43,586 nucleotides of DNA from IMG/VR virus record IMGVR_UViG_3300043613_000002, positions 1 through 43,586 of that record. The stretch is one strand, 5' to 3'. Below the pieces are notes generated by a model. That model made no database searches, was not told the DNA's origin, and saw only the letters and a program-made list of their open reading frames with translations. Numbering within the stretch: position 1 is the first letter of the stretch; the number at the start of each line of letters is the position of its first letter. Source of the stretch: a virus. Below, one piece after another: positions 24,053 to 42,549 of this stretch. The translations under genes were made by a program, and so were the position numbers.

Positions 24053-24364
24053 ATGCACGAAATCAAAATTGGCGACATTCACGTTCACCTACACGTTAAG
24101 CCAGATCATCAGGTCGTAGCCCTGCTTAACGCTGTCTTCCCACGGCTCGACCTATTGGAGAGTAACATGACCGCACAGACCGACAAGCTGATTGCCGACG
24201 TACAGGCACTGATCACTGAAGCCGTGAACGACATTACCGCGGCTATCGCCAAGGCCCAGAACACGTCGCCCGATCCGGCGATCGACGCCCTGGATGCTCA
24301 GGTCACAGCGACCACCCAGCAGCTCAAGGATGCGATTGCCACTCTTAATCCGCCGACCGCCTGA
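24053..24364 (+). CDS. Hypothetical protein, last gene of the late operon
   Basis: 103 aa from ATG 24053 (GAGGAT RBS). An alternative internal start at 24167 is preceded by GGAGAGTAAC, identical to the RBS of ORF 137. Confidence 0.48.
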   Translation: MHEIKIGDIHVHLHVKPDHQVVALLNAVFPRLDLLESNMTAQTDKLIADVQALITEAVNDITAAIAKAQNTSPDPAIDALDAQVTATTQQLKDAIATLNPPTA

Positions 24365-24403
24365 ACCCGTGCCGGACGGATTCCGGCTCCTCCCAGACTT
24401 CAG

Positions 24404-24560: not shown

Positions 24561-24577
24561 TTTCGTTCCTCAGTCAC
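24561..24577 (-). promoter_or_regulatory. Conserved leader motif copy L1 (GTGACTGAGGAACGAAA on the - strand)
   Basis: One of four near-identical TGACYRAGGAACGARA elements lying 2-8 nt upstream of an ATG. Confidence 0.7.
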
Positions 24578-24831: not shown

Positions 24832-24847
24832 TCTCGTTCCTCGGTCA
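24832..24847 (-). promoter_or_regulatory. Conserved leader motif copy L2 (TGACCGAGGAACGAGA)
   Basis: Read directly. Confidence 0.7.
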
Positions 24848-24917
24848 TGCTATGGTCTGCTGCGTATTTGATTGTTGTAGCGGCCCTTGCAGGGTTAGTT
24901 TGGCTGGAAGACTATTT

Positions 24918-24969
24918 GTATAAACCAACTTGACCGATCCCGTTCTCACTCGCTCAGCGGCTAAGTTCG
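24918..24969 (+). repeat. 52-nt bipartite element, copy 1 (GTATAAACCAACTT-N27-GGCTAAGTTCG)
   Basis: Read directly. The stop codon TAG of gene 24961..25188 lies inside the 11-mer. Confidence 0.85.
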
Positions 24970-25188
24970 ATCTGCTTGAGAGCACGGTAGTGGCAGCAAT
25001 TCCGGATGGTCATCTTTAAGATGATCCCGGAGCATCGCCATATAGTTTGGGACGTGCAGCACTTCAATATTACCGGGCATCGTGGCGCTGTCGCGCTCTT
25101 GAAACCAACTATCCCTACCCGGACGAAGGTCTTGCCAGACTCGCCACCCAAGCGCTTTGGCTATCTCTAAATTTGCCTCGTTATCCAT
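24961..25188 (-). CDS. Hypothetical protein (75 aa)
   Basis: ORF track entry. The ATG is preceded by a T8G8 tract on the coding strand. Confidence 0.5.
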   Translation of the reverse strand: MDNEANLEIAKALGWRVWQDLRPGRDSWFQERDSATMPGNIEVLHVPNYMAMLRDHLKDDHPELLPLPCSQADRT

Positions 25189-25191
25189 GCA

Positions 25192-25207
25192 CCCCCCCCA
25201 AAAAAAA
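25192..25207. repeat. Homopolymer tract C8A8 (G8 then... read on the - strand as T8G8), ending 3 nt upstream of ATG 25188
   Basis: Read directly: acccccccca aaaaaaag. Confidence 0.9.
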
Positions 25208-25302
25208 GATCCAAATATCCCCGATCGGGGTATAAAGGAACAAGAATGTTGACCGTCTTTCTTCCACCGCGACGGTCAGGCGGGATCGCAACACCATTCT
25301 AA

Positions 25303-25497
25303 TCATCCATCCTTGATGGCAGGATTGAACGGCGCGGAAGCTTTATCCTCGTGATATCGGCAAAAATATTTTATGGTTTCGCTTCCATCAATTACCAGAC
25401 ATCTAACTGTAGATGTTTCTCTCGATTTGCATATTGTGCAGCGCGCCACTAACTTGAATTGAACAATCTCGTTCATGGTCTTTCGTTCCTCGGTCAT
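25303..25497 (-). CDS. Hypothetical Cys-rich small protein
   Basis: 64 aa from ATG 25497, which lies inside leader L3, or 57 aa from ATG 25476, which lies 4 nt after L3 and is more likely. Confidence 0.5.
   Translation of the reverse strand: MTEERKTMNEIVQFKLVARCTICKSRETSTVRCLVIDGSETIKYFCRYHEDKASAPFNPAIKDG
25481..25496 (-). promoter_or_regulatory. Conserved leader motif copy L3 (TGACCGAGGAACGAAA)
   Basis: Read directly. Confidence 0.7.
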
Positions 25498-25507
25498 GAC
25501 GGCTTAC

Positions 25508-25561
25508 AGAACTTAGCCTATCACGTTTCTGTTCTGCATTGCCGCTCAAGTTGTACTATCC
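25508..25561 (-). repeat. Bipartite element copy 2, inverted (GGATAGTACAACTT-N29-GGCTAAGTTCT on the - strand)
   Basis: Read directly. Lies upstream (in the sense direction) of gene 25303..25497. Confidence 0.85.
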
Positions 25562-25567
25562 CCCCTC

Positions 25568-25723
25568 CTATTGCGGAGGATTGGTGGTAGGCGCGGGCAG
25601 CGGTTTCTTGCAAATGCGCTCGAAATTCCAGCGCATGAATCGGTTAAATTCCTCGGGAGGCATGGCGGCTAATTTGGCGATCTTCTCGCGCGGCGTCTGT
25701 TCTTTATTTTCTGTATCGTCCAT
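25568..25723 (-). CDS. Small hypothetical protein (51 aa)
   Basis: AAGGAGG lies 6 nt upstream of the ATG. Sequence MDDTENKEQTPREKIAKLAAMPPEEFNRFMRWNFERICKK... Too short for the ORF track. Confidence 0.5.
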   Translation of the reverse strand: MDDTENKEQTPREKIAKLAAMPPEEFNRFMRWNFERICKKPLPAPTTNPPQ

Positions 25724-25759
25724 CTCAATCCTCCTTGCAGCTTTGGTGAGCGGTGGCGG

Positions 25760-25962: not shown

Positions 25963-25978
25963 TTTCGTTCCTTGGTCA
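25963..25978 (-). promoter_or_regulatory. Conserved leader motif copy L4 (TGACCAAGGAACGAAA)
   Basis: Read directly. Confidence 0.7.
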
Positions 25979-26095: not shown

Positions 26096-26143
26096 GCCGT
26101 CCTCCTCCGCGGCCCTAGCCGCTTGTTGCCTGTTCCATGACGC

Positions 26144-26473
26144 CTAGGCGCAATCACGCAAAATGTTGCGAATTATGAGGCTGTCCATGCTCGGCACATC
26201 GTGCCGTTTGTAGACATCGTATTTCATCCCGGCCGGGACTTCATCGTCTGGCCTTCCTGCCAAGGCTCCTTCGTATATGTCGCAGGCCTGTGCCAAATAG
26301 ATCTGTGCATTGACGCGACTGAGGCCGCCACGATCACGGGCTGCGGCTATCATCTGGCGTAATTCGCCGATGGACAGCCTGCTCTGGGTGCTCTTTTCGC
26401 TGGCCATTCTCTTGTTCATCCGCTTTTCCCGGTAGTATTCTGGATAAACCAACTTTGATGCTGCCATTCTCAT
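26144..26473 (-). CDS. Hypothetical protein (109 aa)
   Basis: ORF track entry with a GAGGAA RBS. The first codons overlap repeat copy 3. Confidence 0.55.
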   Translation of the reverse strand: MRMAASKLVYPEYYREKRMNKRMASEKSTQSRLSIGELRQMIAAARDRGGLSRVNAQIYLAQACDIYEGALAGRPDDEVPAGMKYDVYKRHDVPSMDSLIIRNILRDCA

Positions 26474-26493
26474 TTCCTCAGCGGCTAAGTTCG
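26442..26493 (+). repeat. 52-nt bipartite element, copy 3 (GGATAAACCAACTT-N27-GGCTAAGTTCG)
   Basis: Read directly. The 11-mer starts 1 nt after the stop of gene 26495..26797. Confidence 0.85.
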
Positions 26494-26494
26494 T

Positions 26495-26797
26495 TCAAGA
26501 GGGCGGAATCTCGCCTTTGTCGTTCATTCGGTTGGTATCATCTACCGCCTTGCGGTAGCTGTCCTTGAAGTCCTTGTACGTCCGCGGCGCATCCCACATA
26601 TCAAGGATGGCAGCGCACTTGTCCTCGATCGACATTGAATGCCATCGGGGTCCTGGGCTGATGTGCCAGCCGGTATTGCCCTTGTCGATCATATCGACGA
26701 CACGAGCTTGGAACTTCTGTATTGAGGTACGCGGACACTTGCTCGGAGCGCCGCAGTATTTATCGCCGGTATTTCCGCAAACTTGACACTGGCTCAT
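26495..26797 (-). CDS. Hypothetical Cys-rich protein (100 aa)
   Basis: ORF track entry with AAGGAGGAG RBS. N-terminus MSQCQVCGNTGDKYCG. Confidence 0.55.
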   Translation of the reverse strand: MSQCQVCGNTGDKYCGAPSKCPRTSIQKFQARVVDMIDKGNTGWHISPGPRWHSMSIEDKCAAILDMWDAPRTYKDFKDSYRKAVDDTNRMNDKGEIPPS

Positions 26798-26813
26798 ATG
26801 CTTCTCCTCCTTT

Positions 26814-26823
26814 GAACTTAGCC
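26814..26823 (-). repeat. Isolated decamer GGCTAAGTTC (- strand), 16 nt upstream of ATG 26797
   Basis: Read directly. Inverted relative to the 11-mer of copy 3. Confidence 0.8.
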
Positions 26824-26830
26824 AACAGCG

Positions 26831-27082
26831 TTAGTGATGAAGCTCGGCGCTCTCGTCCTCATCGTCGGCATCATCGGCATCATCTTCTTCATCAATTAAG
26901 ACCTCCGCGTTCGGGTACCAGTCCTTAGCCCAGCGGGTAGCGGCATCGATAGGCTCGCCGATTTTGCAGGTTTTGAAATGATCCGGAACATCTCCCTCGA
27001 TTGGCGGCTGTTCCATCTTCCAATAGACATCGATCTGCCAGAAGCCCTTTTCGTGCAGCGAAATGACGGCATAGTCTTTCAT
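26831..27082 (-). CDS. Small protein with a poly-acidic C-terminal tail
   Basis: 83 aa. C-terminus LIDEEDDADDADDEDESAELHH. Confidence 0.55.
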   Translation of the reverse strand: MKDYAVISLHEKGFWQIDVYWKMEQPPIEGDVPDHFKTCKIGEPIDAATRWAKDWYPNAEVLIDEEDDADDADDEDESAELHH

Positions 27083-27260
27083 GGGAAATCCTCACTCAGT
27101 AGGACAGGTGGAGGATCTGGCGGCGGTGCGGGGACTGCTCAAAATTACCTTTTGGCCTCAATGAGCTCCATGCGCCCGCACCTTCCGTTAATACCTTGAT
27201 ATTGTTAGGACGTTTCACAACTTCTTCCCCCACCATTGTTAAAAAATGACGCTGTAATCG
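27083..27260. other. Non-coding gap next to the integrase; candidate attP region
   Basis: 178-nt gap immediately downstream of the int stop. The core sequence is not identifiable without the host attB. Confidence 0.3.
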
Positions 27261-28331
27261 TTAAGCTTTTTTAGCCTCGTCCCGCACCTTCCCATCTGGT
27301 GAGGGAATAGAAGTTCCGGGTTTGGACAGTTTGCCCATGTGCTCCGCGGCGAGCCGGCGCCGGTCAGCAGCCTTGGTGTAGAGGGCCGCCATCTGTCCCC
27401 CCTGCCATCCGAAGATCGCCTCCAGGGTCGCCACCGTGGCGCCGTTGTTCGCTGCGCGGGTCGCTGCGGCCTTCCTGATCCCGTGTCCCGACTTTGCTAT
27501 GCCGGCGGTCCGGCAGGCCTTCTTGAACATATTGCCAAGCGATTCCTTGCGGATGGGCTGTCCCTTCTTGCTGGCGATGATCGATAATTCCCCCAGCGGT
27601 CCGGCCTCCAGGATCTCTGCTAACTCCGGCAACACGGGGATCGTAACCCGCGTGTCGTTCTTCTCGGTGTCGATCGTGATGACGCCGTGTCGGATATGCT
27701 GCTTGCCGAGTTTGGCCGCATCGCCGCGGCGCAGTCCGGTGAAGCAATAGACGCCAAACATAACACGTTCGCGCGTTCCTAGCTTCCAATAAGCTTCGTA
27801 CTGCTCAAGTTCTTCTTCGGTCCATTCTGGAAAGCCTCTTGTCTTCGGCTTTCTCACTTTCTTTCCCGTGGTCGGATCTGAGCTGATGTGCTGGGCACCA
27901 ACCGCCCATTTGAACATGCCGCGCATAGTGTCGAGGAAATGCCGGCCCGCGAACGCCTTGCGGCGCTCAATGCCTTGGTCGATCGCCTTGTTGGTGATCT
28001 TCGATAGTGGCTGATTGCCGCCGGTCTTTAGAACCCCGCGCATGATGTTTTCGCGCTGCTTACGGGTAGCCATTGAAAGCTCGGTCCATGCGGTCGTCTG
28101 TCGATAGAGCATCCACAGCCATTCCAACGAGCCCTTGAGGGCCTTCCCTGCGGGCTGCGGTGACTTGCCGTTCAGCGCAGCTTGATAGGCTTCCTCAAAT
28201 TCCGTCGTGCCGTAGACAGCCTTTATGCGAATCCTCGGGCCTTTGCCGATGCGGACATACCAGACCGTTTTACCGTGGCGGTTGGTTTCCCGGTGAAGGT
28301 GGGGTGGGCGAGGGCGGGGCATGCCTATCAA
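27261..28331 (-). CDS. int: Tyrosine integrase
   Basis: Catalytic motifs GLRRGD, HGIRKAAATR and LYTK read directly. The likely ATG start is 28322 (MPRPRPP); the track start is TTG at 28331. Confidence 0.92.
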   Translation of the reverse strand: MIGMPRPRPPHLHRETNRHGKTVWYVRIGKGPRIRIKAVYGTTEFEEAYQAALNGKSPQPAGKALKGSLEWLWMLYRQTTAWTELSMATRKQRENIMRGVLKTGGNQPLSKITNKAIDQGIERRKAFAGRHFLDTMRGMFKWAVGAQHISSDPTTGKKVRKPKTRGFPEWTEEELEQYEAYWKLGTRERVMFGVYCFTGLRRGDAAKLGKQHIRHGVITIDTEKNDTRVTIPVLPELAEILEAGPLGELSIIASKKGQPIRKESLGNMFKKACRTAGIAKSGHGIRKAAATRAANNGATVATLEAIFGWQGGQMAALYTKAADRRRLAAEHMGKLSKPGTSIPSPDGKVRDEAKKA

Positions 28332-28547: not shown

Positions 28548-28913
28548 TCATGACTTGCCGCTGTCCGTCGATGCGACGGCTGAGAGGTCTCGAATTTGAG
28601 CGGCCGTCGCTTCCCATCCATTATTCGCGGCGATCTTCGCGCATTCCTCGATTGCTCCATTCCAGCCGGCGTTGAAGCCAAGATCGTGAAGCTCATCGCA
28701 TTTCTGCAAGATCGGATTCGACGCTCGTTGGGAGCCATCGCGGAATGCTTTCTCAAGCATTGCTTCAAGCTCGGCGATGCGCTTGTCCTTGGCATCACAG
28801 GCATCTCGCCACATCTTCACAGCGTCGTTCACGCCAGCATCTCCCAAAACCACCAAACCAGAACGACGGCGGTAAACACAGCCATCGCCAGCCATATCCA
28901 GCGCCATTCCCAA
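28548..28913 (-). CDS. Hypothetical protein
   Basis: Track ORF of 121 aa. The start is uncertain (TTG 28913, ATG 28907, or later). Confidence 0.5.
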   Translation of the reverse strand: MGMALDMAGDGCVYRRRSGLVVLGDAGVNDAVKMWRDACDAKDKRIAELEAMLEKAFRDGSQRASNPILQKCDELHDLGFNAGWNGAIEECAKIAANNGWEATAAQIRDLSAVASTDSGKS

Positions 28914-28932
28914 ACGTCGGACTTGCGGCCGG

Positions 28933-29324: not shown

Positions 29325-29499
29325 TTTTCACTCTCCCCGCACAAAGCCGCTGATGCCGCCGCTGGCCACGCCGATCCATCCAGTCACAGAGTTCGCTGAA
29401 AAGAATCCACAGCACATCGAAAGGCAGCAACAGCAGCCACAAGACGGCTGTCAGGAGGAGGCCGGCGACGATCTTAACCCGGAGCGGATAGTCGTTCAT
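29317..29499 (-). CDS. Small TM protein (60 aa)
   Basis: Internal ATG at 29499 forms an ATGA overlap with the upstream stop. Contains the hydrophobic segment IVAGLLLTAVLWLLLLPF. Confidence 0.45.
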   Translation of the reverse strand: MNDYPLRVKIVAGLLLTAVLWLLLLPFDVLWILFSELCDWMDRRGQRRHQRLCAGRVKND

Positions 29500-29690
29500 G
29501 GCTCCACTCGTCGAGCGAGAAGAGCTAGAATTGCATCTGCTTTTTCCAGTAGCCGAGCTATCCTCAAACCAAAGACAACATCGGCCCAAAGCTTTCCGTT
29601 TTCGGCAAGTATGCCTTTTTCCATCAACAGATCATATTCCACGTATAGATCCGGGTTTATGATCCGAGCGATTTTCTCGCGGTTCGTCAT
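29496..29690 (-). CDS. Hypothetical protein (64 aa)
   Basis: Internal ATG at 29690, ATGA-coupled to the upstream stop. Confidence 0.5.
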   Translation of the reverse strand: MTNREKIARIINPDLYVEYDLLMEKGILAENGKLWADVVFGLRIARLLEKADAILALLARRVEP

Positions 29691-29794: not shown

Positions 29795-30474
29795 GGCTGG
29801 GTTTCCGGAGCGGAGGAGGACTGCGCTACAGCCATTTCGATTGCATCTCCGCAACGTTGGCAGTGCCACTTACCGTCGAGGCTGATTATCGCGGCATGCG
29901 CGCAGCTCTCGCCCGTTACTGGATCTGCGGCGGGCTGTTCCGGGGGTGATGCGAGCGCGGCTAGATATCGGTCGGCATATCGTTTACCGAGCCCATCGAA
30001 TGGTCGATTATCAGCCATAAAATATGCCACGATGATCTCGCGCAACGTTAATGGCTCGTAGCAATCTATCTCGATAGGAATATCCAGATCCCTCCCCCGC
30101 AATGGGGAGGCCGGTTGGGCGATGAGAACGGCTCTTGCTTTTTGATGGGGACATTCACCCATTTCATAAGCGCTCTCAGCATCCCTCGAATGCCCCATGC
30201 AGGTGCAGTCGGAAAAGCCCTTTAGGTTGGCGGCCTGCCGTTCATACGCGAGCAAATCCAGCAACGCTTCTCGCTCCCCACCAACCGCAGGCGTGGCAGC
30301 GAGAGCTGCCAGAACCGCAGCCCGCTTGCTCACATGCATCTGCATCGTGATCATGTCGTTGTTGTCGGGGATCTGGTGGGCGATCTCGTCGGCGATGTCG
30401 GTCGTGGTGCCCATGCGATTGGGCTGGCTGGTGGAGAGGACTTCGGCGTGGCAGTCGGGGCAGGTTTTGGTCAT
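29791..30474 (-). CDS. Hypothetical Cys-rich protein (227 aa)
   Basis: Starts MTKTCPDCHAEV. The ATG at 30474 forms an ATGA overlap with the upstream micro-ORF. Confidence 0.6.
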   Translation of the reverse strand: MTKTCPDCHAEVLSTSQPNRMGTTTDIADEIAHQIPDNNDMITMQMHVSKRAAVLAALAATPAVGGEREALLDLLAYERQAANLKGFSDCTCMGHSRDAESAYEMGECPHQKARAVLIAQPASPLRGRDLDIPIEIDCYEPLTLREIIVAYFMADNRPFDGLGKRYADRYLAALASPPEQPAADPVTGESCAHAAIISLDGKWHCQRCGDAIEMAVAQSSSAPETQP

Positions 30475-30641: not shown

Positions 30642-30680
30642 TTTATTTCCTCAAGCGAGAGCGTGTGCATTTGGTCATTT

Positions 30681-30732
30681 GGATAGTTCAACTTTCATGC
30701 TGATCGGATCATTCGCGCAGCGGCTAAGTTCG
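30681..30732 (+). repeat. 52-nt bipartite element, copy 4 (GGATAGTTCAACTT-N27-GGCTAAGTTCG)
   Basis: Read directly. The stop TAG of gene 30724..31029 lies inside the 11-mer. Confidence 0.88.
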
Positions 30733-31029
30733 TTCGCCATTCGCGAGCGCGCGTAGCGCCGGCACGATGCGATCTAGATTGTTGTGCAGAAGGCAAAGCA
30801 ACTCGCCCAGCTCCGGCGTCACGTACTGAGCCACCTCAACCGTCAGATTATCGCCCATGTGTTTGGCGGTGTACCTGACATGGTTAAAGTGGTCCGTCCC
30901 GTCCTTGTAGGAGTGAGGCTCTTCCTCAACTCGCCATTCCTCACGGTGCTTGGACCAAAGCAGGCGAAGGCGGTCGGCTAGTTCGATGTTGTTCACGTGA
31001 CTGTTTTCCTCTCTACTGATGATCGTCAT
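30724..31029 (-). CDS. Hypothetical protein (101 aa) bracketed by inverted repeat copies 4 and 5
   Basis: ORF track entry. Confidence 0.55.
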   Translation of the reverse strand: MTIISREENSHVNNIELADRLRLLWSKHREEWRVEEEPHSYKDGTDHFNHVRYTAKHMGDNLTVEVAQYVTPELGELLCLLHNNLDRIVPALRALANGERT

Positions 31030-31040
31030 CTATCTTTCTT

Positions 31041-31093
31041 GGTACTTAGCCGCTGCGCTTCTGTTCATCCGTGACATTCAAGTTGAACTATAC
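31041..31093 (-). repeat. Bipartite element copy 5, inverted (GTATAGTTCAACTT-N28-GGCTAAGTACC on the - strand)
   Basis: Read directly. The 15-nt GCGCAGCGGCTAAGT is identical to copy 4. The element ends 11 nt from ATG 31029. Confidence 0.88.
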
Positions 31094-31100
31094 AAATCCT

Positions 31101-31166
31101 TCAAGCGAGAGCGACGAACGCAAACAGGAAGGTAAGGAAGAGGGCGATGGTCAGGGCTGTGATCAT
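31101..31166 (-). CDS. Possible 21-aa hydrophobic micro-ORF
   Basis: MITALTIALFLTFLFAFVALA. GGAGGAACGACA precedes the ATG. ATGA overlap with the HNH gene stop. Confidence 0.2.
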   Translation of the reverse strand: MITALTIALFLTFLFAFVALA

Positions 31167-31936
31167 TGTCGTTCCTCCGGCTGTTGCCTAATGGCGGTCA
31201 TGAAGACTTCTTTTTCTTTCTCCGAGAGATCGAAGAAGCCATGAATGACGGCGGAAACTCTTTTTAAGCTGGCAGCTTCATCGGTATGCGAAAAGCGCTC
31301 AGCGCCAATCCCACCAAAGGTTGGCAAAAGAGGCGTCAAAAGCGCCCGCTCCTCTGTCCAGCCCCTATCCAGGCGCAGCAGGAACGCGTCATACTTCAGG
31401 CCGACCATCTCTGCAGCTTCTGAAGCGGGCATGGGGCGACCGAAGAAAGTAATAACTCTACGGCCTCGACGGTTTCGCATTTGCTGCGTTTTGGTCGCCC
31501 AGCGGCAGTTTCCGGGCTCGTAATTTCCGTCATTGTCGATCCTGTCCAGCGAATGCTTGGGAGACGGCTTGCGGCCCATATTCTCTAAGAACGCGGGATA
31601 GCTGTTGAGCCATCGTTCGCAGACTGAGATTCCGCGACCTCCGTAATAGGAAAAGCTATCGTCCTTCGGGTCCGTGCATCGGCGGATAAAGCCGCGCCAG
31701 CAAGATAGTTCTGGAGCGACATTCCCGCGTTCGGCGTCGCCATGCTTGAAGCTTCGGAGGCCCAATTGGCTTTTCTTAATGCATCCGCAGCTCTTTGATT
31801 GCCGAATACTGCCCCCACGCATAATTTTTTCGTTTCCGCAGTCGCATCTAATATTCCAAAGAGAGACCGGTCCAGCGTAGCTGACGACATTTATCATGCC
31901 AATCTTGCGACCAGCCATATCAATTAGCTGCCTCAT
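31163..31936 (-). CDS. HNH-type endonuclease-like protein
   Basis: HSLDRIDNDGNYEPGNCRWATKTQQMRN is an HNH_3-like motif. The internal ATG at 31936 is ATGA-coupled to the upstream stop. Confidence 0.68.
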   Translation of the reverse strand: MRQLIDMAGRKIGMINVVSYAGPVSLWNIRCDCGNEKIMRGGSIRQSKSCGCIKKSQLGLRSFKHGDAERGNVAPELSCWRGFIRRCTDPKDDSFSYYGGRGISVCERWLNSYPAFLENMGRKPSPKHSLDRIDNDGNYEPGNCRWATKTQQMRNRRGRRVITFFGRPMPASEAAEMVGLKYDAFLLRLDRGWTEERALLTPLLPTFGGIGAERFSHTDEAASLKRVSAVIHGFFDLSEKEKEVFMTAIRQQPEERQ

Positions 31937-32229
31937 TTCGGAGCCCTCAACGTCATGGCAAGAATGAACGGATCTATTCCATGACTGGACCAAAAAGAAA
32001 TTTCATTCATGCTGTGTTGTTCACGATGGTGATTATTACAGAGGGGCAAACACCAAATATCTGAAGGACGCTCAGAGCCTCCGGTTTCGCGTTTTCCATG
32101 CTCCAAACTCGCCGTTCGTATATGCGCCGCCTCAGTGTCGATGCCTCCACAGATGCAGCATGGCAAAGACCTAATAAATCTGAGATGGGCCTCATTCCGG
32201 ACGCGCGGTTCTTTCTGGCGTAGCGTCAT
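31933..32229 (-). CDS. DUF968 / NinG-like Cys-His protein
   Basis: LPCCICGG..EAAHIRT..PSDIWCLPLCNNHHREQH. The ATG at 32229 is ATGA-coupled. Confidence 0.62.
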   Translation of the reverse strand: MTLRQKEPRVRNEAHLRFIRSLPCCICGGIDTEAAHIRTASLEHGKRETGGSERPSDIWCLPLCNNHHREQHSMNEISFWSSHGIDPFILAMTLRAPK

Positions 32230-32768
32230 GCTCCGACCCTCTGCCAAGCCTGGAATTGATCGTCTAGTTGCTTCCAAATCATTCTCGCGGCATGGTTCAC
32301 TCCGAAAGCCGAGCGAGAATTTACGCCACATAGAAAGCGAACGACATCAGCCGCATTGTATTCGCATGCTATCCAATCGTCGGCGTATTGCTCGCGGAGG
32401 AATGCCTCAAACACAGCATCATCGCAGCGGATGCCGGCCTGCTCAGTCGGAGGAACATCGCGCCAATCACGCTTATCGCGCTTGGCCCCTGCCGACTTGG
32501 GGGCAGACAGGGGCCGCGCATCAATGATGTTGTTGGATGGTTGGGGATTTGGCATCACCTCCTTTGTTTGAATTGCCTGTTCATCGTCACCGACTTGCAC
32601 CAAGGCGACGATGTAACGAGAGCCAAGCGGAGCCTCGGCAAGACCCTTCGGAACGTCATGCGGATGCACAACGAAGCTGATGACAACGCCATCCTTTGTC
32701 TGTCGATAGGCGTGCTTGACACCTTCGAAGTGGATGGCGTTGGCGGTTGCTAGGTCTGCCGGGGTCAT
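32226..32768 (-). CDS. Hypothetical early protein (180 aa)
   Basis: ORF track entry, ATGA-coupled at both ends. Confidence 0.6.
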   Translation of the reverse strand: MTPADLATANAIHFEGVKHAYRQTKDGVVISFVVHPHDVPKGLAEAPLGSRYIVALVQVGDDEQAIQTKEVMPNPQPSNNIIDARPLSAPKSAGAKRDKRDWRDVPPTEQAGIRCDDAVFEAFLREQYADDWIACEYNAADVVRFLCGVNSRSAFGVNHAARMIWKQLDDQFQAWQRVGA

Positions 32769-32923
32769 CGTTCTGCCTTGTCATATTTGCGAACCGCGGA
32801 CTGAACCGCATCCGCTGTGAACTGCATTCTTGTCTTGCGAGCCAATCGACATGCGACCTCACGCCAGCATTGCCAGATGCCGTACAGGCGAAGCGCCTCA
32901 TTGATGTCGATTGGCTCACGCAT
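32765..32923 (-). CDS. Small hypothetical protein (52 aa)
   Basis: MREPIDINEALRLYGIWQCWREVACRLARKTRMQFTADAVQSAVRKYDKAER. TGATG and ATGA coupling to its neighbours. Not in the ORF track. Confidence 0.45.
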   Translation of the reverse strand: MREPIDINEALRLYGIWQCWREVACRLARKTRMQFTADAVQSAVRKYDKAER

Positions 32924-33591
32924 CAGGCGGCCTTCTTGGTAAGAACTGCCCGGCGATCAATGACCGCGGTCTTGAGCGTTTGAACTTGGGTGCTATCAAG
33001 CTGGTATTCCCGCCGCGCCTTCTTCTGCGCATCAGAGTTCCACCAGGTGCCGAGCAACTCAGCGTCATCGAACTGGGCGATGGCTTCCCGGCATTCGACC
33101 ATGAAGGCGTTGCGCTCAAGCATCGGGACGGCCTTTTCTGCCGGAGCATCGTCGCCAACGTTGGTCTGTTGTTTGTCGTAAAGGGCGAGGCCGAACGGAT
33201 TGCCGAATGTCATAAAGGCGCGCTTCATAGAATCAGTCTCGGCTTCCTTGATCGCGCTCTCATGAGCCTGACCAAGATCCCGGTCTATCCCGTGACCGGC
33301 GCCAAAGCCTTCGCGCGCCACGCCATTAATGATGATGCGAGACTTGCAGACGTAGGTGACGCCCCAGCCTGGAGCCTTCTGCTTGCCGATCTCGCGCTCT
33401 TTCTCGGCAACGCACTTCACGTCAATGGTTTCGCGGGTCCAGTTATCGAACCCGAAGATGCGATTGGCTTCTGCGATGACATGCCAGCCTTCGATATAGC
33501 TGACCCGACTTCCGCCTTGTTCGCGTGTTTTAACGCTGCTGGGAGAGAGCTTGGCAGCGAGTGCTGATTTGGTTTCGTCGGAGAACATCAC
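32923..33591 (-). CDS. Rad52/Rad22-family single-strand annealing protein
   Basis: SYIEGWHVIAEANRIFGFDNW...ETDSMKRAFMTFGNPFGLALYD is characteristic of the Rad52 fold family. Confidence 0.85.
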   Translation of the reverse strand: MMFSDETKSALAAKLSPSSVKTREQGGSRVSYIEGWHVIAEANRIFGFDNWTRETIDVKCVAEKEREIGKQKAPGWGVTYVCKSRIIINGVAREGFGAGHGIDRDLGQAHESAIKEAETDSMKRAFMTFGNPFGLALYDKQQTNVGDDAPAEKAVPMLERNAFMVECREAIAQFDDAELLGTWWNSDAQKKARREYQLDSTQVQTLKTAVIDRRAVLTKKAA

Positions 33592-35011: not shown

Positions 35012-35113
35012 TCACAGGTTAATAATGAGCAGATACAGAGAGCCGTATGATCCGATCACGACGGCAACCGAGGCGGCGAGGAAAAGGGTGGTGTGGCGGG
35101 AAGTCAGGATCAT
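35012..35113 (-). CDS. Micro-ORF, TM peptide (33 aa)
   Basis: MILTSRHTTLFLAASVAVVIGSYGSLYLLIINL. TGATG overlap with the upstream stop. Confidence 0.3.
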   Translation of the reverse strand: MILTSRHTTLFLAASVAVVIGSYGSLYLLIINL

Positions 35114-35892
35114 CACGCTGCCTCCAGCTCAGTAAGAGCGAGCCACTGGACGCCCGGCACCTTCATTTCGATTAGGATCTGGACGACGCCTTCCGCGAAG
35201 TCCGCGAGCGATTTATCGCGAGCGTAGGCGGCGTCGGCGGCGTCGGCGGCGTCGACGTCGGCGGCGTAGGCGGCGGCGGCGGCGTAGGCGGCGGCGTCGG
35301 CGGCGTCGGCGTAGGCGGCGTAGGCGGCGGCGGCGGCGTCGGCGTAGGCGGCGTAGGCGGCGTAGGCGGCGTAGGCGGCGGCGGCGGCGGCGGCGGCCTG
35401 TCGCGCTGAGCGCGCGACTTCGTGGGCATCCAACGCAGATTGCCGAGTGCCTTCGATCTCGCAACGGTTCGCCGCATCACGCAGTGCCTGAACATGCTTC
35501 GGGTCTTTGTGGATCGAAGCAGCGGCACGCAGTGCGATCGGAACGGAAGTCTTCGTTGCCAGAACCGCACAGTGGGTTGCAAATTCCTTAGCGTCCAGAT
35601 GACCCTTGCTGCCAAGTTGGATCACAGCGAGACGACGGAGGCCCTTGGCGCGCGCTTGATCAGACGACCAGCGAGAATCGTTCAGTCGGATTTTCAGAGA
35701 ACGAAGCGAAGGCGCGACGCACTGCGGATCATCACCGTGGGGCAGGCCGAGCGCGTAGCACACGGCGGCCTCGACGCACATCTGACCCGGGATCGGATTG
35801 CCGACACCATTGACCAAACCTGCATCAACGATCTCGAGAAGCTTGATAACAACGTCTTTGGTGATTTCGGGCTGCATTTTTGCTTGATCCAT
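35113..35892 (-). CDS. First PL-operon protein; globular N-domain plus an Ala/Tyr/Asp low-complexity repeat
   Basis: 259 aa. Contains AAYAAYAAYADAAAAAYAAYADAADAAAYAAAAAYAADVDAADAADAAYA. Confidence 0.68.
   Translation of the reverse strand: MDQAKMQPEITKDVVIKLLEIVDAGLVNGVGNPIPGQMCVEAAVCYALGLPHGDDPQCVAPSLRSLKIRLNDSRWSSDQARAKGLRRLAVIQLGSKGHLDAKEFATHCAVLATKTSVPIALRAAASIHKDPKHVQALRDAANRCEIEGTRQSALDAHEVARSARQAAAAAAAAYAAYAAYAAYADAAAAAYAAYADAADAAAYAAAAAYAADVDAADAADAAYARDKSLADFAEGVVQILIEMKVPGVQWLALTELEAA
35222..35397. repeat. GCN-triplet / 9-nt tandem repeat tract (gcggcgtag, gcggcgtcg and gcggcggcg units)
   Basis: Read directly. Four consecutive ggcgtaggc units lie near 35340..35380. Confidence 0.9.
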
Positions 35893-35914: not shown

Positions 35915-35942
35915 GTTCTATCACGCATTGTGATAATGTAAA
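35915..35942 (-). promoter_or_regulatory. PL-like promoter with an embedded 17-bp operator
   Basis: The - strand reads TTTACA-ttatcacaatgcgtga-TAGAAC. The operator TATCAC-N5-GTGATA is at 35919..35935. Confidence 0.6.
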
Positions 35943-35990
35943 GGGGCAAAACTAAAAATAATTACAAAATGTGATTTTTCTTAAAATGAT

Positions 35991-36621: not shown

Positions 36622-36673
36622 GATCCAATTTTGCAACACAAACGGTGACCGGGCTAATTTCTTTTTGTGAGTA

Positions 36674-36701
36674 TTGACATTATCACACGCCGTGATAGAT
36701 G
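36674..36701 (+). promoter_or_regulatory. PR-like promoter with an embedded 17-bp operator
   Basis: TTGACA-ttatcacacgccgtga-TAGATG. The operator TATCAC-N5-GTGATA is at 36681..36697. The -10 ends 8 nt before ATG 36710. Confidence 0.62.
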
Positions 36702-36709
36702 TTTCGGTC

Positions 36710-36946
36710 ATGATCAGAAAACTCCATTCCGTACAAGAAGTCATTGATGAGCTTGGCGGTTATGACGCCGTTAAGTCTTTGACCAATCGAAGCAGCCAGT
36801 CTGTCATTCCGACGTGGAAGTGGCGGAAGAAATTCCCCCCCAACACATTCGCTGTGATGAGGGCTGCGCTGTTGGCAAGGGGCGCCATTGCCCCGGCCTC
36901 GTTGTGGGGAATGCCGGAGTTGCAGATGGAGGCTACTGCCTCATGA
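36710..36946 (+). CDS. Cro / YdaS-like small DNA-binding regulator
   Basis: 78 aa. ELGGYDAVKSLTNRSSQSVIPTWKWRKKFP resembles YdaS/Cro-type HTH proteins. First gene after PR. Confidence 0.65.
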   Translation: MIRKLHSVQEVIDELGGYDAVKSLTNRSSQSVIPTWKWRKKFPPNTFAVMRAALLARGAIAPASLWGMPELQMEATAS

Positions 36947-37341
36947 GCAACGTCTATTTCCTTCAAGTTGGAACGGATGGGCCGATCAAGATCGGCTGCA
37001 CAAAGAACGATATTCAGCAGCGCGTTCGAGCGATGCAACTGACTAGCCCTCACATCTTGCGGTGGATTGGATATTTCCCCGGTGACCGCGCGGCCGAACG
37101 ACAAGCGCATCTGCTTCTGAAGAATAGTTCGCTGCGGGGCGAGTGGTTTTATCCGACCGTCGAGGTTTTGGCTTTTGTAGCGCAGAAGTCTCCGGGCTTC
37201 GAGCCCATAGTTGTCGAAAACAATCCGTTTCAGCACCCACCCCGATCGGCGGAATCACGCGCGCAACAGTCGAAAAGCATGCTCGAGCACTGGGAGCGGA
37301 AGCGCAAACGTCAGATTGAACGAGAGGGGCTGAACTCATGA
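36943..37341 (+). CDS. GIY-YIG-like (T5orf172-type) domain protein
   Basis: VYFLQVGTDGPIKIGCTKNDIQQRVRAMQ...GEWF. ATGA overlap with cro. Confidence 0.62.
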   Translation: MSNVYFLQVGTDGPIKIGCTKNDIQQRVRAMQLTSPHILRWIGYFPGDRAAERQAHLLLKNSSLRGEWFYPTVEVLAFVAQKSPGFEPIVVENNPFQHPPRSAESRAQQSKSMLEHWERKRKRQIEREGLNS

Positions 37342-40111: not shown

Positions 40112-40380
40112 ACGAGCTTCAATCTCTCGGAATACGCGCCAGAAACACCCAAGGGGAACAAAAAACCACATGCCCAAAATGCTCACATCTCCGGCGCAAA
40201 AAGACCGATCGGTGCCTCTCGCTGAGGATCGATCATGACGGCTTTGCAGCTCATTGCTGGCACTGCGGATGGACCGCCGGGTCTGAGCGCCGCGGCGGTT
40301 CTGTTCGCCACAAGCCGAAAACTGAGCCTCAGGACCTTGGATCGGCTGGGCGTCGGCTCCGGTACGGTGTTCTTTCCTGA
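40087..40380 (+). CDS. Primase zinc-ribbon domain ORF, in a separate frame from the TOPRIM/helicase ORF
   Basis: CPKC...CWHC motifs. Overlaps 40235..41716 by 146 nt in a different frame. Confidence 0.6.
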   Translation: MSSGPIVLDELQSLGIRARNTQGEQKTTCPKCSHLRRKKTDRCLSLRIDHDGFAAHCWHCGWTAGSERRGGSVRHKPKTEPQDLGSAGRRLRYGVLS

Positions 40381-41716
40381 ACTGAAGCGGAAATCCGACG
40401 CGATATTTTTCAAATACCCGGTAGGCTGGAAAGCTCGATCCGTCCCAGAAAAAGCATTCACGGCGATGACCGGGACCAAGCCGGTATTCTGGAATCTGGC
40501 AAATGTTTTAGCTGGAGCCAGCCCGGTAATTTACATCACGGAAGGCGAACTGGACGCCTGTGCGTTGGTCGAAGCGGGGATTCCCGTTTCGCAGGTTCTG
40601 TCGGTCCCCAATGGGGCTGTAGAGCGTCCTGCGGAGGCGGACAAGGAAGTTCGTGGTTATGCCTACGTTTTGGAAGCCCTCGCTGCCGGGCTCCGCAAGA
40701 CGAAGAAATTCGTATGGTGCGGCGATAACGATGCGCCGGGTTTATCCCTGCGTGCGGATATGGCGAGAATGCTTGGCCTCCCAAGATTTTGGTTTGTGGA
40801 ATGGCCGGAAGGCTGCAAGGACGCCAACGATGTTTTAAAACACGAGGGGCCGGAATTCCTGCTCAGTCTCGTGACTGATGGCGCCTTGCAATGGCCGATT
40901 GATGGGCTGTTCAAGCTTTCGGAATTGCCTGATCCGCCAGCCATGACGTTGTGGAATCCTGGCTTTCCGGAGTGGGAAAAGAAGGTGTTTCTTGCCCCTC
41001 GAACTATGAGCGTTGTCACCGGACATCCAGGCCACGGCAAGACGCAACTGTGGACGCAGATCTGGTTCAATATCGTCCGGGCATACTGCGTGCCGATCGC
41101 GATTGCGTCGTTTGAGACCCGCGCCAAGCCTCACGTCCGTAGGTATCTGAGGACTCTTCTAATCGGGAAACTGGAGAAGGATTGCGACGAAGGAGAATTG
41201 GCAAAGGCCGATAAATGGATTGAGGAGCGCTATTTGTTCATGGTGCATCCGGAGGGTCGGCCATCGCTGAAATGGTTTCTGGACCTTGCGGAGGTCGCGG
41301 TTGTTCGTCACGGCGCCAGAATAATCCAGGTCGACCCATGGAACAGGCTGGAAGCTGCTCGAGGCCGTGACCAGAGCGAAACTGAATACATCGGCATGTG
41401 CTTGCGGGAAATACATTCGTTCGCCCACGACATGAACTGTCACGTCCAGATCCTGGCTCATCCGGCGAAAATGGAAGGTGCGCGCCGCGGTAACGCACCG
41501 GGTCTCGAGGATATCTCAGGCTCAAAGAACTGGGAAAACATGGTGGATCAAGGCTTCGTCGTTCATCGGCCGAAGATGTTTGACGGCAAAACCAGAATTA
41601 CCGAGGCGGAACTTTACCACAAGAAGGCGCGGTTTGATGATCTCGGTTACCCGTGCGTGCTCGATTTAGATTTCAAGATCAGTCAGGGCAAATACGTTTC
41701 GAGGGATTACGCATGA
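40235..41716 (+). CDS. TOPRIM primase / DnaB-like helicase (T7 gp4-like architecture)
   Basis: TOPRIM motifs ITEGELDACAL and CGDNDAPG. Walker A GHPGHGKT and Walker B IIQVDPWN. GAGGA lies 6 nt before the ATG. Confidence 0.85.
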   Translation: MTALQLIAGTADGPPGLSAAAVLFATSRKLSLRTLDRLGVGSGTVFFPELKRKSDAIFFKYPVGWKARSVPEKAFTAMTGTKPVFWNLANVLAGASPVIYITEGELDACALVEAGIPVSQVLSVPNGAVERPAEADKEVRGYAYVLEALAAGLRKTKKFVWCGDNDAPGLSLRADMARMLGLPRFWFVEWPEGCKDANDVLKHEGPEFLLSLVTDGALQWPIDGLFKLSELPDPPAMTLWNPGFPEWEKKVFLAPRTMSVVTGHPGHGKTQLWTQIWFNIVRAYCVPIAIASFETRAKPHVRRYLRTLLIGKLEKDCDEGELAKADKWIEERYLFMVHPEGRPSLKWFLDLAEVAVVRHGARIIQVDPWNRLEAARGRDQSETEYIGMCLREIHSFAHDMNCHVQILAHPAKMEGARRGNAPGLEDISGSKNWENMVDQGFVVHRPKMFDGKTRITEAELYHKKARFDDLGYPCVLDLDFKISQGKYVSRDYA

Positions 41717-41850
41717 AACCATACAAGCTTGACTCGATAAGCGACGAAGAAAAGGAACGCCAAAAAAAAGCCAAGGCTGACTACCTTGCGCGGCTGGAGG
41801 AGTCGAGGAAGTGGCTGAAAGAGTACGTGCGGCCGACGATCAATGGCTAA
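41713..41850 (+). CDS. Small hypothetical protein (45 aa)
   Basis: ATGA-coupled. Its stop TAA lies inside a GGCTAAGTT motif. Confidence 0.45.
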   Translation: MKPYKLDSISDEEKERQKKAKADYLARLEESRKWLKEYVRPTING

Positions 41851-41855
41851 GTTTC
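41845..41855 (+). repeat. 11-mer GGCTAAGTTTC, 16 nt upstream of ATG 41872
   Basis: Read directly. Same decamer family as the accessory-region repeats. Confidence 0.75.
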
Positions 41856-41871
41856 AGGAAGGACTACGGAT

Positions 41872-42045
41872 ATGAGCGATTTTGATGATGTTCACGAATC
41901 TTGGAAGAAAGCCAAACGCGAATATGACCTCGCAGAACGCAATTTAGCTATGGCGAGAGCGCGTCTTACTGACGCTGATCGCTCCAAACAAGCCGAGTGG
42001 GATAAGCTGGTGGAACGAGCGCGGGTTAGTGCGACTGCTTACTAA
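41872..42045 (+). CDS. Small hypothetical protein (57 aa), bracketed by inverted 11-mers
   Basis: MSDFDDVHESWKKAKREYDLAERNLAMARARL... Not in the ORF track. Confidence 0.45.
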   Translation: MSDFDDVHESWKKAKREYDLAERNLAMARARLTDADRSKQAEWDKLVERARVSATAY

Positions 42046-42056
42046 CGAACTTATCC
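42046..42056 (-). repeat. Inverted 11-mer variant (CGAACTTATCC on the + strand, GGATAAGTTCG on the - strand), directly after stop 42045
   Basis: Read directly. One mismatch to GGCTAAGTTCG. Overlaps a small hairpin, TTATCC-gaacag-GGATAA. Confidence 0.7.
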
Positions 42057-42071
42057 GAACAGGGATAACGA

Positions 42072-42311
42072 ATGACACGCAATGAGGCTGAGATGTTGGC
42101 AATAAAGGCTGTTGGCTTTGAATTCAGCGAGGATGCGCGCCGCCATCTAGTTATTCTGGAAACTCTCGGGATACTCAAGTTCGAGGAGCCGAAGACGGTC
42201 GGGAAGCTCATTGTTGAAATTAGTAAGACAGGCAATTCCCATCGAGAATTGCTGGAGTGGGTCGGAGTACTCAACGACGCCGGCCTTCAAATCATCAAAA
42301 AGGGGCAATGA
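42072..42311 (+). CDS. Hypothetical protein (79 aa) ending IIKKGQ
   Basis: ORF track entry. Confidence 0.55.
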   Translation: MTRNEAEMLAIKAVGFEFSEDARRHLVILETLGILKFEEPKTVGKLIVEISKTGNSHRELLEWVGVLNDAGLQIIKKGQ

Positions 42312-42312
42312 A
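42288..42312 (+). repeat. 25-nt direct repeat, copy 1 (caaatcatcaaaaaggggcaatgaa)
   Basis: 24/25 identical to 42525..42549. Confidence 0.85.
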
Positions 42313-42548
42313 TGACGAGCGAAGTTGAAATCTCGGATGATGGCAAAAAGAAGCACCAAAGCTTCAGTGCGCGCTGGGCTTTAGACGCGCTGGGAGGAAT
42401 GGGCTCGCGGAATGTAAACCTGGAGGGCTGGGGAGCCACGGAGGTTGAAAGCCGCGAGCAACTGATCACACAGGCCCGGATGGCTCGCGACGGTCTGAAT
42501 TCGGCAATCGAAATGATGATAAGTCAAATCATCGAAAAGGGGCAATGA
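42312..42548 (+). CDS. Hypothetical protein (78 aa) ending IIEKGQ
   Basis: ORF track entry. Confidence 0.55.
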   Translation: MTSEVEISDDGKKKHQSFSARWALDALGGMGSRNVNLEGWGATEVESREQLITQARMARDGLNSAIEMMISQIIEKGQ

Positions 42549-42549
42549 A
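42525..42549 (+). repeat. 25-nt direct repeat, copy 2 (caaatcatcgaaaaggggcaatgaa)
   Basis: Read directly. Confidence 0.85.

Follow-up and report, generated by a model that had tools for sequence, protein, structure and literature searches.

The origin and shuffling of the small ORFan accessory genes of phages, among them genes of anti-defence, host takeover and lysogenic conversion, are a long-standing question, and to our knowledge very few concrete sequence devices for such shuffling have been described, one of them being the promoter-early stem-loop (PeSL). For the PeSLs of T4-type phages, exchange by general recombination in conserved boundaries has been proposed (PMC2839356). In the context of plasmids, dif modules carry pdif sites, i.e. 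28-bp Xer sites with two 11-bp arms and a 6-bp crossover spacer, and their movement is proposed to proceed via cointegrate formation and resolution; integron arrays carry one attC site per cassette, always in the same orientation. Here, a family of short bipartite elements is described from a viral DNA of 43,586 nucleotides (IMG/VR virus record IMGVR_UViG_3300043613_000002, positions 1 to 43,586; the whole stretch is referred to as the window), in which inverted pairs of the element enclose small open reading frames (ORFs). An earlier inspection of the letters, made without database searches (the sequence-only reading), had described one such pair, cassette a, at positions 24918 to 25561. The element resembles the known cassette-boundary systems, i.e. 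PeSLs, dif modules and integron arrays, yet it fails the defining tests of each.

Inverted element pairs in the window

The window represents a temperate soil phage of the Bradyrhizobium type with a GC content of 55.9%. It contains four slots of one design (a, b, c and a minimal slot d) at three separate places of the genome. In each slot one or two small ORFs, here called cargo, lie between two inward-facing copies of a polar element, and the direction of every cargo in the window is that of the surrounding operon. Convergent pairs of the 10-mer GGCTAAGTTC, with at most one mismatch and 150-1200 bp apart, were found four times in the window, against 0.017 expected, and the pattern CAACTT-N20-40-GGCTAAGTT likewise occurred four times, against 0.00 expected. 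Two separate assemblies of this phage showed no polymorphism over the 9.5-10.2 kb retrieved, slots a and b included. Coordinates of all slots, elements and cargo genes are given in Table 1.

Both copies of cassette a were recovered where the sequence-only reading had placed them: copy 1 (plus strand, 24918-24969) reads GTATAAACCAACTT-N27-GGCTAAGTTCG and copy 2 (minus strand, 25508-25561) reads GGATAGTACAACTT-N29-GGCTAAGTTCT. The copies do face each other, with the 11-mers proximal to the genes and the 14-mers distal, and share this layout with cassette c. They bracket two minus-strand ORFs, 24961-25188 and 25303-25497, and the stop codon TAG of the first (24961-24963) falls within the 11-mer, as had been reported. 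Two details of that description were revised. The 11-mer does end 10 nt from the ATG at 25497, but this codon, which had been taken as the start of the upstream gene, is a less likely start than the ATG at 25476, because a Shine-Dalgarno (SD) sequence GAGGAA lies 6 nt before 25476, whereas 25497 has none. This SD sequence sits in a junction motif, TCGTTCCTYRGTCA on the plus strand. The boundary described as an 11-mer and a 14-mer was found to have the inner 10-mer, usually preceded by CAGC, as its invariant part; the outer 14-mer can be lost and is absent from the upstream copy of slot b, where it is replaced by the 3′ end of the gene 26831-27082, and from both copies of slot d.

The upstream cargo gene a-1 yielded no homologues, and the 22 homologues of the downstream gene a-2 were all distant, close ones not being found. 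The last codons and the stop codon of a-2 come from the inner box. The GC content of a-1 (42%) and of cargo a as a whole (48.7%) is below that of the phage. In the spacer between the two genes, a C8A8 tract stands directly upstream of the a-2 start on the minus strand, and ATATTTGGATC resembles the beginning of the outer box; this spacer may be prone to slippage or resemble a terminator, or it may have been left behind when two cassettes fused. The gene flanking cassette a upstream has a relative in locus L024 (L numbers denote the loci that were compared with the window), where no element follows it. As the genes downstream are different ones, L024 cannot serve as a clean empty site of this cassette.

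The junction motif TCGTTCCTYRGTCA was observed four times (24563-24576, 24834-24847, 25483-25496 and 25965-25978), one of the copies lying within cassette a. Read on the minus strand it is TGACYRAGGAACGA, i.e. a stop codon TGA together with the SD sequence GAGGAA, and the four copies mark gene junctions of the leftward accessory operon.

The element as a family

The consensus of the element consists of tt-TGGATAGTWCAACTT, 27-30 variable bases with a weak CACG box, and CAGC-GGCTAAGTTC, giving a polar sequence of about 55 bp. Its two boxes, the outer and the inner, are related to each other and stand in direct order about four helical turns apart. Both are near-invariant, whereas the spacer between them drifts. 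The ends of the element are sharp on both sides, and most copies begin with TG. IMG/VR, the JGI metagenomes and a single genome for each species were scanned for the pattern, and an nhmmer profile search was then added, which brought the total to 64 copies, 50 being unique. These lay on viral and metagenome contigs from soil and in a single prophage, that of Bradyrhizobium sp. URHD0069; the 185,579 species-representative genomes gave one real match. Rfam, the PLSDB plasmids and the 50,697 phage records of GenBank contained nothing similar, the GenBank phage searches taking in near and distant phages as well as the consensus element and PLSDB being queried with the cassette. A published description of such elements was not found in literature searches aimed at them, and the family appears to be undescribed. 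Elements were positioned in accessory regions beside the integrase gene and at the ends of early operons.

Full convergent pairs numbered 25. Among 58 exact inner boxes from 28 non-redundant loci, orientation alternated in 30 of 30 neighbouring pairs: 24 were of the '+-' type, 215-776 bp apart, six were '-+', and neither '++' nor '--' was observed. Partners without outer box and spacer, which lay outside the search pattern, still showed an exact inner 10-mer in seven of eight cases. Since reduced partners keep exact inner boxes, the invariant structure is GGCTAAGTTC, cargo, GAACTTAGCC.

Some variation in the arrangement of the elements was also seen. Back-to-back cassettes occurred in L047 (1920-1945), L037 (595-625) and L027, with a linker of about 18 nt (AAAYCAGTCCTGAGATTT) between neighbouring outer boxes, and a deletion in L047 had removed spacer and outer box of a downstream copy while the inner box was retained. 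In one subtype of the element (window 26441-26473; L009, L038 and L049) an ORF begins within the downstream copy (M[RS]MAASKL[VY]YP...) and runs on into differing downstream sequences; the N-terminus of the next gene may in these cases be encoded by the element. At the locus of slot d, a cassette with a full frame was present in L037. Just downstream of slot d in the window, a 26-nt direct repeat (42287-42312 and 42524-42549, 96% identical) forms the 3′ ends of two adjoining small paralogous genes, 42072-42311 and 42312-42548.

Replacement of cargo within conserved frames

The one or two ORFs enclosed by each pair of elements span the distance between the copies. An SD sequence and a start codon come after the first copy, and at the second copy the stop codon stands in or beside the box; the final codons of the ORF are supplied by the box (...RT*, ...GT* or ...NELSR*) in over half of the cassettes. 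About 24 distinct cargos were found, which are mutually dissimilar except on near-identical contigs. One encodes an N6/N4 DNA methylase and one a GapR-like DNA-binding protein, the others being ORFans; no transposase or recombinase was seen among them. Searches of the window cargos against Pfam, PHROGs, NCBIfam and PADLOC gave no family match.

The loci L006, L055, L043 and L046 agree in their flanks and in both elements, but hold four cargos that are unrelated to one another. In this L006-type frame, located between the late-operon terminator and the integrase gene, identity on the sense strand extends through ...GGCTAAGTTC, ends at the next base and restarts exactly at GAACTTAGCC...; in an exact scan for the L006 flank, L006 alone matched. 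The frame of slot b is 93-96% identical in the window, L009, L038/L048, L049 and L062, which hold five different cargos of 234-596 bp, and four of these frames differ in cargo even though they lack the upstream outer box. The locus and frame of slot c are shared with L002, whose cargo is 174 aa long. Cargos found more than once (L027/L047/L068 and others) were always in the same frame and the same orientation, although this sample is small.

In the three frames that recur with different cargo, homology breaks off at the inner-box edge. Judged from these alignments, the elements are shown to be persistent parts of the backbone, between whose inner boxes the sequence is replaced wholesale among related phages. 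The reading of 24918-25561 as a cassette is supported accordingly by relatives of its sister slots (frame b, frame c and the L006-type frame): different cargo between the same repeats was found for the element family and for those slots.

Non-inverted islands of 30-66 bp at gene junctions were also 90-97% identical between the window and L009, L038 or L002, the genes between them being unrelated, from which it follows that phages of this group are generally mosaic at junctions. Table 1 includes islands of 28-52 bp that lie for the most part at gene junctions and are 86-98% identical to L009, L038 or L002.

Origin of the cargo and insertion of whole cassettes

Cargo c has 22 homologues with 52-83% identity. 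Six distinct contexts of these homologues were retrieved with their DNA, of which five are tightly packed ordinary phage operons and the sixth (L095) is an ABC-transporter operon; no box or element was found near the homologue in any of the six. In a nucleotide alignment with the closest well-covered relative, homology covers the native 5′ untranslated region (UTR, about 30 nt) and the ORF, and stops at ...CGA, where the box begins. The 3′ joint reads ...GGCGAACGA/ACTTAGCC in the window and ...GGAGATCGA/GCATGA in the native gene (the slash marks the joint), indicating that both the stop codon and the codon before it (Ala to Thr) were overwritten by the box. At the 5′ joint the native leader is in frame with the ATG of the frame's SD-ATG region, which results in an N-terminal extension of 11 codons. 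These first 11 codons (ATG 31029 to 30997) are the frame's own ATG fused to the captured native 5′ UTR, and the native start is probably the GTG at 30996. The 5′ joint lies inside the first codons of a previous cargo and off the box edge, so that at least this capture did not proceed by exact cutting at the two box edges. The box-less relatives and the two joints of cargo c together show capture into a pre-existing frame, the boxes not travelling with the gene. By this comparison, cargo genes are shown to derive from ordinary phage genes without boxes.

Direct repeats just beyond the outer boxes were observed in 4 of 20 cassettes; they are 9-17 nt long, with variable offsets, the 95th percentile of shuffled sequences being 8. 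One of these pairs flanks the whole of cassette c, and its second copy is the 3′ end, stop codon included, of a small ORF upstream. In L004 the downstream gene has its first 47 nt in two copies, in one of which only the last 17 nt have not diverged; a single crossover that joined a circular or displaced donor to a diverged homologous target would leave such a trace. Since repeat length and offset are variable, short-homology recombination is favoured and a transposase disfavoured. Comparison of the loci shows that whole cassettes can insert at new gene junctions, and mobility is evident in these alignments solely as such insertion and as replacement of cargo.

The DUF968 gene of the window is separated from cassette c by a gene for a free-standing HNH endonuclease, followed by a hydrophobic ORF of 21 aa (31101-31166). 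The HNH gene was not detected in the syntenic relative L002 and looks like a separate insertion of the homing type.

Tests for structure and regulatory signals

Single copies of the element folded no better than shuffled sequence in five of six cases (z-scores about 0), no conserved base pair was found with RNAalifold among 33 copies, and Rfam gave no match at gathering or E-value thresholds. The spacers of partner copies were no more alike than those of non-partners (permutation p = 0.88), left and right ends showed no co-evolution, and systematic uncompensated mismatches were present between copies, the outer boxes differing by GTA/GTT and the inner boxes by GTAC/GTTC. The fold, RNAalifold, spacer and mismatch results rule out that the element acts as an RNA or single-strand DNA structure. 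No tRNA was found in the window with ARAGORN.

A scan for sigma-70 promoters and intrinsic terminators revealed no site in any element, and the candidate of a promoter/terminator pair was rejected on this ground. Patterns of sigma-54 and extracytoplasmic function sigma factors (ECF/EcfG), IHF, the LexA box (GTTC-N7-GTTC) and the DnaA box were checked by eye, and none fitted. A target-site duplication of fixed length was not found. No invertase was found, and an invertible switch was rejected on present evidence, given the constant orientation of cargo and the identical assemblies over slots a and b. A crossover in the middle of the spacer, as at a serine-integrase-like site CAACTT-N27-AAGTTC, was likewise rejected, since whole spacers stay with the frame.

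Further features of the window

The only tyrosine recombinase in the window is the lambda-like phage integrase. Just downstream of its gene, the sequence CAACTTCTTCCCCCACCA (27218-27235) may be the attP core; its ...CCCCCACCA part resembles the 3′ end of a tRNA. A protein with a T5orf172/MUG113 (GIY-YIG-like) domain (36814-37341, plus strand) is the third nuclease-type gene of the early region. In the divergent early region, a 43-nt imperfect inverted repeat (35917-35959 and 36657-36699, 72% complementary) with TGTGATAATG-like motifs may be the operator set of the immunity region. Tandem repeats of 9 nt (GCGGCGTAG/GCGGCGTCG) at 35180-35422 encode an Ala/Tyr/Asp-rich repeat in the ORF 35113-35892 (minus strand), which shows 77% identity to a gene of L002 and has no family match.

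Table 1. Positions of slots, elements, cargo genes and other features in the window and, where indicated, in other loci
Feature	Position	Strand	Remarks
Slot a	24914-25561		two cargo genes
Element a1 (3′ end of cargo)	24914..24972	+	nhmmer E 2e-11; family D2; outer box 24918-24931, spacer 24932-24958, inner box GGCTAAGTTC 24959-24968
Element a2 (5′ end of cargo)	25505..25561	-	nhmmer E 1e-10; outer box 25548-25561, inner box 25509-25518, then junction motif and SD
Cargo gene a-1	25303..25476	-	57 aa, Cys-rich, zinc-ribbon-like; 64 aa from alternative start 25497
Cargo gene a-2	24961..25188	-	75 aa, ends ...DRT*
Spacer between a-1 and a-2	25189..25302		C8A8 tract 25192-25207; palindrome CCCCGATCGGGG 25219-25230; hairpin with 8-bp stem ~25250-25278
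Slot b	26439-26851		outer box gone from upstream copy
Element b1 (3′ copy)	26439..26495	+	93-96% identity to same frame in L009, L038, L049, L062
Element b2 (5′ copy)	26811..26851	-	inner box and spacer retained
Cargo b	26495..26797	-	100 aa, without family match
Slot c	30677-31098		full elements at both ends
Element c1 (3′ copy)	30677..30735	+	
Element c2 (5′ copy)	31041..31098	-	inner box variant GGCTAAGTAC
Cargo c	30724..31029	-	101 aa
Direct repeat TCAAGCGAGAGCG	30651-30663 and 31101-31113		13 nt, flanks whole cassette c
Slot d	41845-42056		reduced to two inner boxes
Slot d inner box GGCTAAGTTT	41845-41854	+	encloses, with the other box, ORF 41872-42045
Slot d inner box GGATAAGTTC	42047-42056	-	
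Junction islands	24360-24400, 24848-24899, 25708-25756, 26102-26143, 28899-28928		
Further junction islands	29335-29362, 29459-29500, 30089-30127, 30272-30304		
Late operon	up to ~24.4 kb	+	
Lambda-like tyrosine integrase	27261-28331	-	lambda Int is best solved relative
HNH endonuclease, free-standing	31163-31993	-	phrog_374, E 9e-61
DUF968 HNH-like protein	31933-32331	-	
Rad52-family annealase	32923-33591	-	
Primase-helicase-like ORF	40235-41716	+	motifs read in sequence only
DUF968 gene, L002	2773-3069		
DUF968 gene, L005	9536-9796		
DUF968 gene, L030	623-907		
DUF968 gene, L042	830-1126		
DUF968 gene, L045	596-856		

Discussion

We tentatively favour an explanation, which we rate as coming a little short of probable, in which the slots are bounded by protein-recognised sites on double-stranded DNA, cargo is exchanged by crossovers inside the elements, new cargo is captured by illegitimate joining and the inversion of the ends protects the slot. 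The elements would act on double-stranded DNA as boundary or recombination sites recognised by a protein. A swap of cargo between two phage genomes would require two crossovers, or the formation and resolution of a cointegrate, inside the left and right elements, and the likeliest agent would be general recombination of the phage, with a Rad52-type annealase acting on 45-60 bp of common sequence. New cargo and new slots would arise through rare microhomology or illegitimate joins, selection retaining those in which the boxes survive. Recombination between the inverted ends could flip the cargo but never delete it, by which the slot would be stabilised, and as the inner box holds stop codons in both orientations, truncated cargo ORFs would still terminate. 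The annealase gene, the truncated frames with varied cargo, the microhomology-type joints and the junction mosaicism all fit general recombination within boundary sequences.

Several observations weigh against this explanation. No crossover inside an element was mapped and, because the boxes are invariant, the exchange point cannot be localised. Neither cargo-less frames nor the uninterrupted palindrome GGCTAAGTTC/GAACTTAGCC were found in the loci or in IMG/VR, the 23 matches of the palindrome search tracing to terminator hairpins in unrelated phages of low GC and to repeats of giant viruses. Inverted cargos were not seen either, orientation being constant within each frame. For cassette a itself, exchange is inferred from the analogous cases of slot b, slot c and the L006-type frame, since no relative carrying frame a was found. 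A regulatory role finds no promoter, terminator or RNA structure in the element to build on. General recombination does not explain the near-invariant boxes beside a drifting spacer, the constant inversion and the strict alternation; box invariance and inversion imply a specific binding protein.

Such a protein might be the enzyme of a dedicated site-specific system, of the dif-module or recombinase-mediated cassette exchange type, in which the boxes are recombinase or nuclease sites and strand exchange at the inner box swaps modules between genomes. We consider this possible, but on the whole doubtful. The same doubt attaches to its more specific form, a phage counterpart of integrons and dif modules in which an enzyme recognises the bipartite element as a site resembling a recombination signal sequence (RSS) and excises or exchanges the segment at the inner-box edge. 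The lambda-family phage integrase, a host Xer-type enzyme and the DUF968 HNH-like protein are candidates for the enzyme. A dedicated system would account for the sharp element ends on both sides and for the exact inner boxes kept by reduced partners beside near-invariant boxes and a drifting spacer. The window integrase has lambda Int as its best solved relative. Core-type sites of lambda Int read CAACTTNNT; this motif occurs within the outer box (as CAACTT) and is similar to the inner box in reverse, GAACTTAGCC, a likeness that may point to the integrase. The DUF968 gene adjoins cassettes in five other loci, is the sole gene between two cassettes in L005 and stands in the window upstream of cassette c, past the HNH gene, but this proximity may be mere synteny. 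The strict alternation of boxes is as described for pdif sites (PMC13141974). However, conserved DNA is present on one side of the exchange point only, leaving no symmetric core for tyrosine or serine recombinases, and a crossover in the spacer is excluded for a site-specific system, as whole spacers stay with the frame. The 5′ joint of cargo c away from the box edge is contrary to a precise enzyme, and neither an inverted cargo nor a constantly linked recombinase was seen.

The binding protein could also act without recombining. Sequence-level conservation of two related boxes with this order and spacing, and positions in accessory regions beside the integrase gene or at the ends of early operons, would suit an operator-like regulatory or insulating element, in which a phage or host protein binds both ends of each accessory gene (for silencing, looping or roadblocking), with turnover of cargo as a by-product of a mosaicism that is general at junctions. 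This is unlikely: a regulator of this kind is not known, the scan for promoters and terminators gave no signal, and the frequent coincidence of box edge and ORF end is left unexplained. We know of no clear precedent for paired inverted operators around single genes at many loci. The inverted terminal repeats, two related boxes per end as in the ends of Tn7, Mu and IS21, the mostly present TG start and the occurrence of whole cassettes at new junctions recall a non-autonomous transposon (a mobile insertion cassette, or a miniature inverted-repeat transposable element (MITE) with a passenger), with terminal inverted repeats of about 55 bp mobilised in trans by a transposase. As a classical transposon this candidate is largely refuted, and we hold it to be very improbable. 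A fixed target duplication is lacking, the flanking repeats being variable and confined to a minority of cassettes. No transposase occurs as cargo or neighbour, and a cognate insertion sequence (IS) is missing, with the one real match in the species genomes and none in plasmids. Copies without cargo are missing too, and the ends do not co-evolve. An RNA-level device, in which the 5′ and 3′ copies pair in the mRNA as a processing or stabilising stem of the RNase III type or each copy is a structured RNA, would profit from inverted copies that flank a co-transcribed cistron and from inner boxes able to form a perfect 10-bp duplex; given the failed folding, pairing, Rfam, spacer and mismatch tests above, hardly any weight is left to it. 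Chance similarity, or duplicated UTRs of one gene family, the case that would have undone the cassette reading of 24918-25561, has a negligible probability. Chance is excluded by shuffle controls, and the duplicated UTRs are refuted because the roughly 24 cargos share no homology and the same frames recur with different cargo.

If exchange proves to be driven by an enzyme, the element would belong to a new natural cassette-exchange system and might serve as a tool; if no enzyme is involved, it would be a clean natural example of how phage modules evolve under the 'linker sequence' model. In both cases the element offers a practical means of finding hypervariable accessory genes in soil viromes.

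Comparison with known systems

The likeness to V(D)J D segments and their RSS is one of geometry only, i.e. bipartite inverted signals with the proximal box abutting the segment; no RAG- or Transib-type enzyme is present, and a 12/23-type spacer rule is absent, the classes of spacer length overlapping. Small inverted-repeat units without, or nearly without, a transposase of their own, which are also found in phages, include the mobile insertion cassettes, MITEs and the mycobacteriophage mobile elements (MPMEs). The element differs from all of these in having no fixed duplication, no cognate IS and no empty copies, and in that cargo varies within a fixed frame. With morons and the 'linker' boundaries of lambdoid phages it shares extra genes between conserved neighbours and mosaic joints at gene boundaries. 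Morons, however, have their own promoter and factor-independent terminator and no shared flanks, whereas the element cassettes lack these signals and one family of inverted-pair repeats recurs at many loci in many phages.

Integron cassettes are also promoter-less, diverse, single-ORF units in a conserved frame, with ORFs between inverted R′ and R″ cores. The attC site, however, is an imperfect palindrome (R″-L″...L′-R′) that forms a single-strand hairpin, whereas the element does not fold, and the single attC per cassette contrasts with two inverted copies of the element. The motif RYYYAAC was fitted, as GTTCAAC, by some outer boxes only, the complementary GTTRRRY being absent, and no IntI, attI or Pc platform was found in the window. 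From the Xer-dependent dif modules the strictly alternating, inversely oriented bipartite geometry is otherwise known: asymmetric sites of inverse orientation alternate along the replicon, as was found for the element, accessory genes are diverse, no internal recombinase is present and single modules cannot be excised. Compared with pdif, the element is longer (about 55 bp), has boxes 27-30 bp apart, lacks a symmetric core and any resemblance to dif in architecture, and belongs to phages. In addition, dif modules are known in both orientations and in different contexts, whereas element cargos, in a small sample, were seen in one only.

PeSLs (Arbiol et al. 2010, PMC2839356; PMC4122927) are short conserved intergenic motifs around single, mostly ORFan genes. 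In related phages they stand at the ends of insertions, deletions and replacements in hyperplastic regions, and modular shuffling by recombination is proposed as their role; where related phages with the element differ by a gene replacement, its copies likewise mark the ends. PeSLs contain a demonstrable sigma-70 early promoter and a terminator hairpin, occur as direct repeats and can excise mini-circles, whereas the element is inverted and bipartite and has neither signal; excision by recombination between its copies is impossible because they are inverted. PeSL phages are of the T4 type, and the phages with the element are temperate and alphaproteobacterial. With its searchable 55-bp signature and at least 24 unrelated cargos, the element adds to the PeSLs a second device of different structure, which belongs to temperate soil phages of Alphaproteobacteria.

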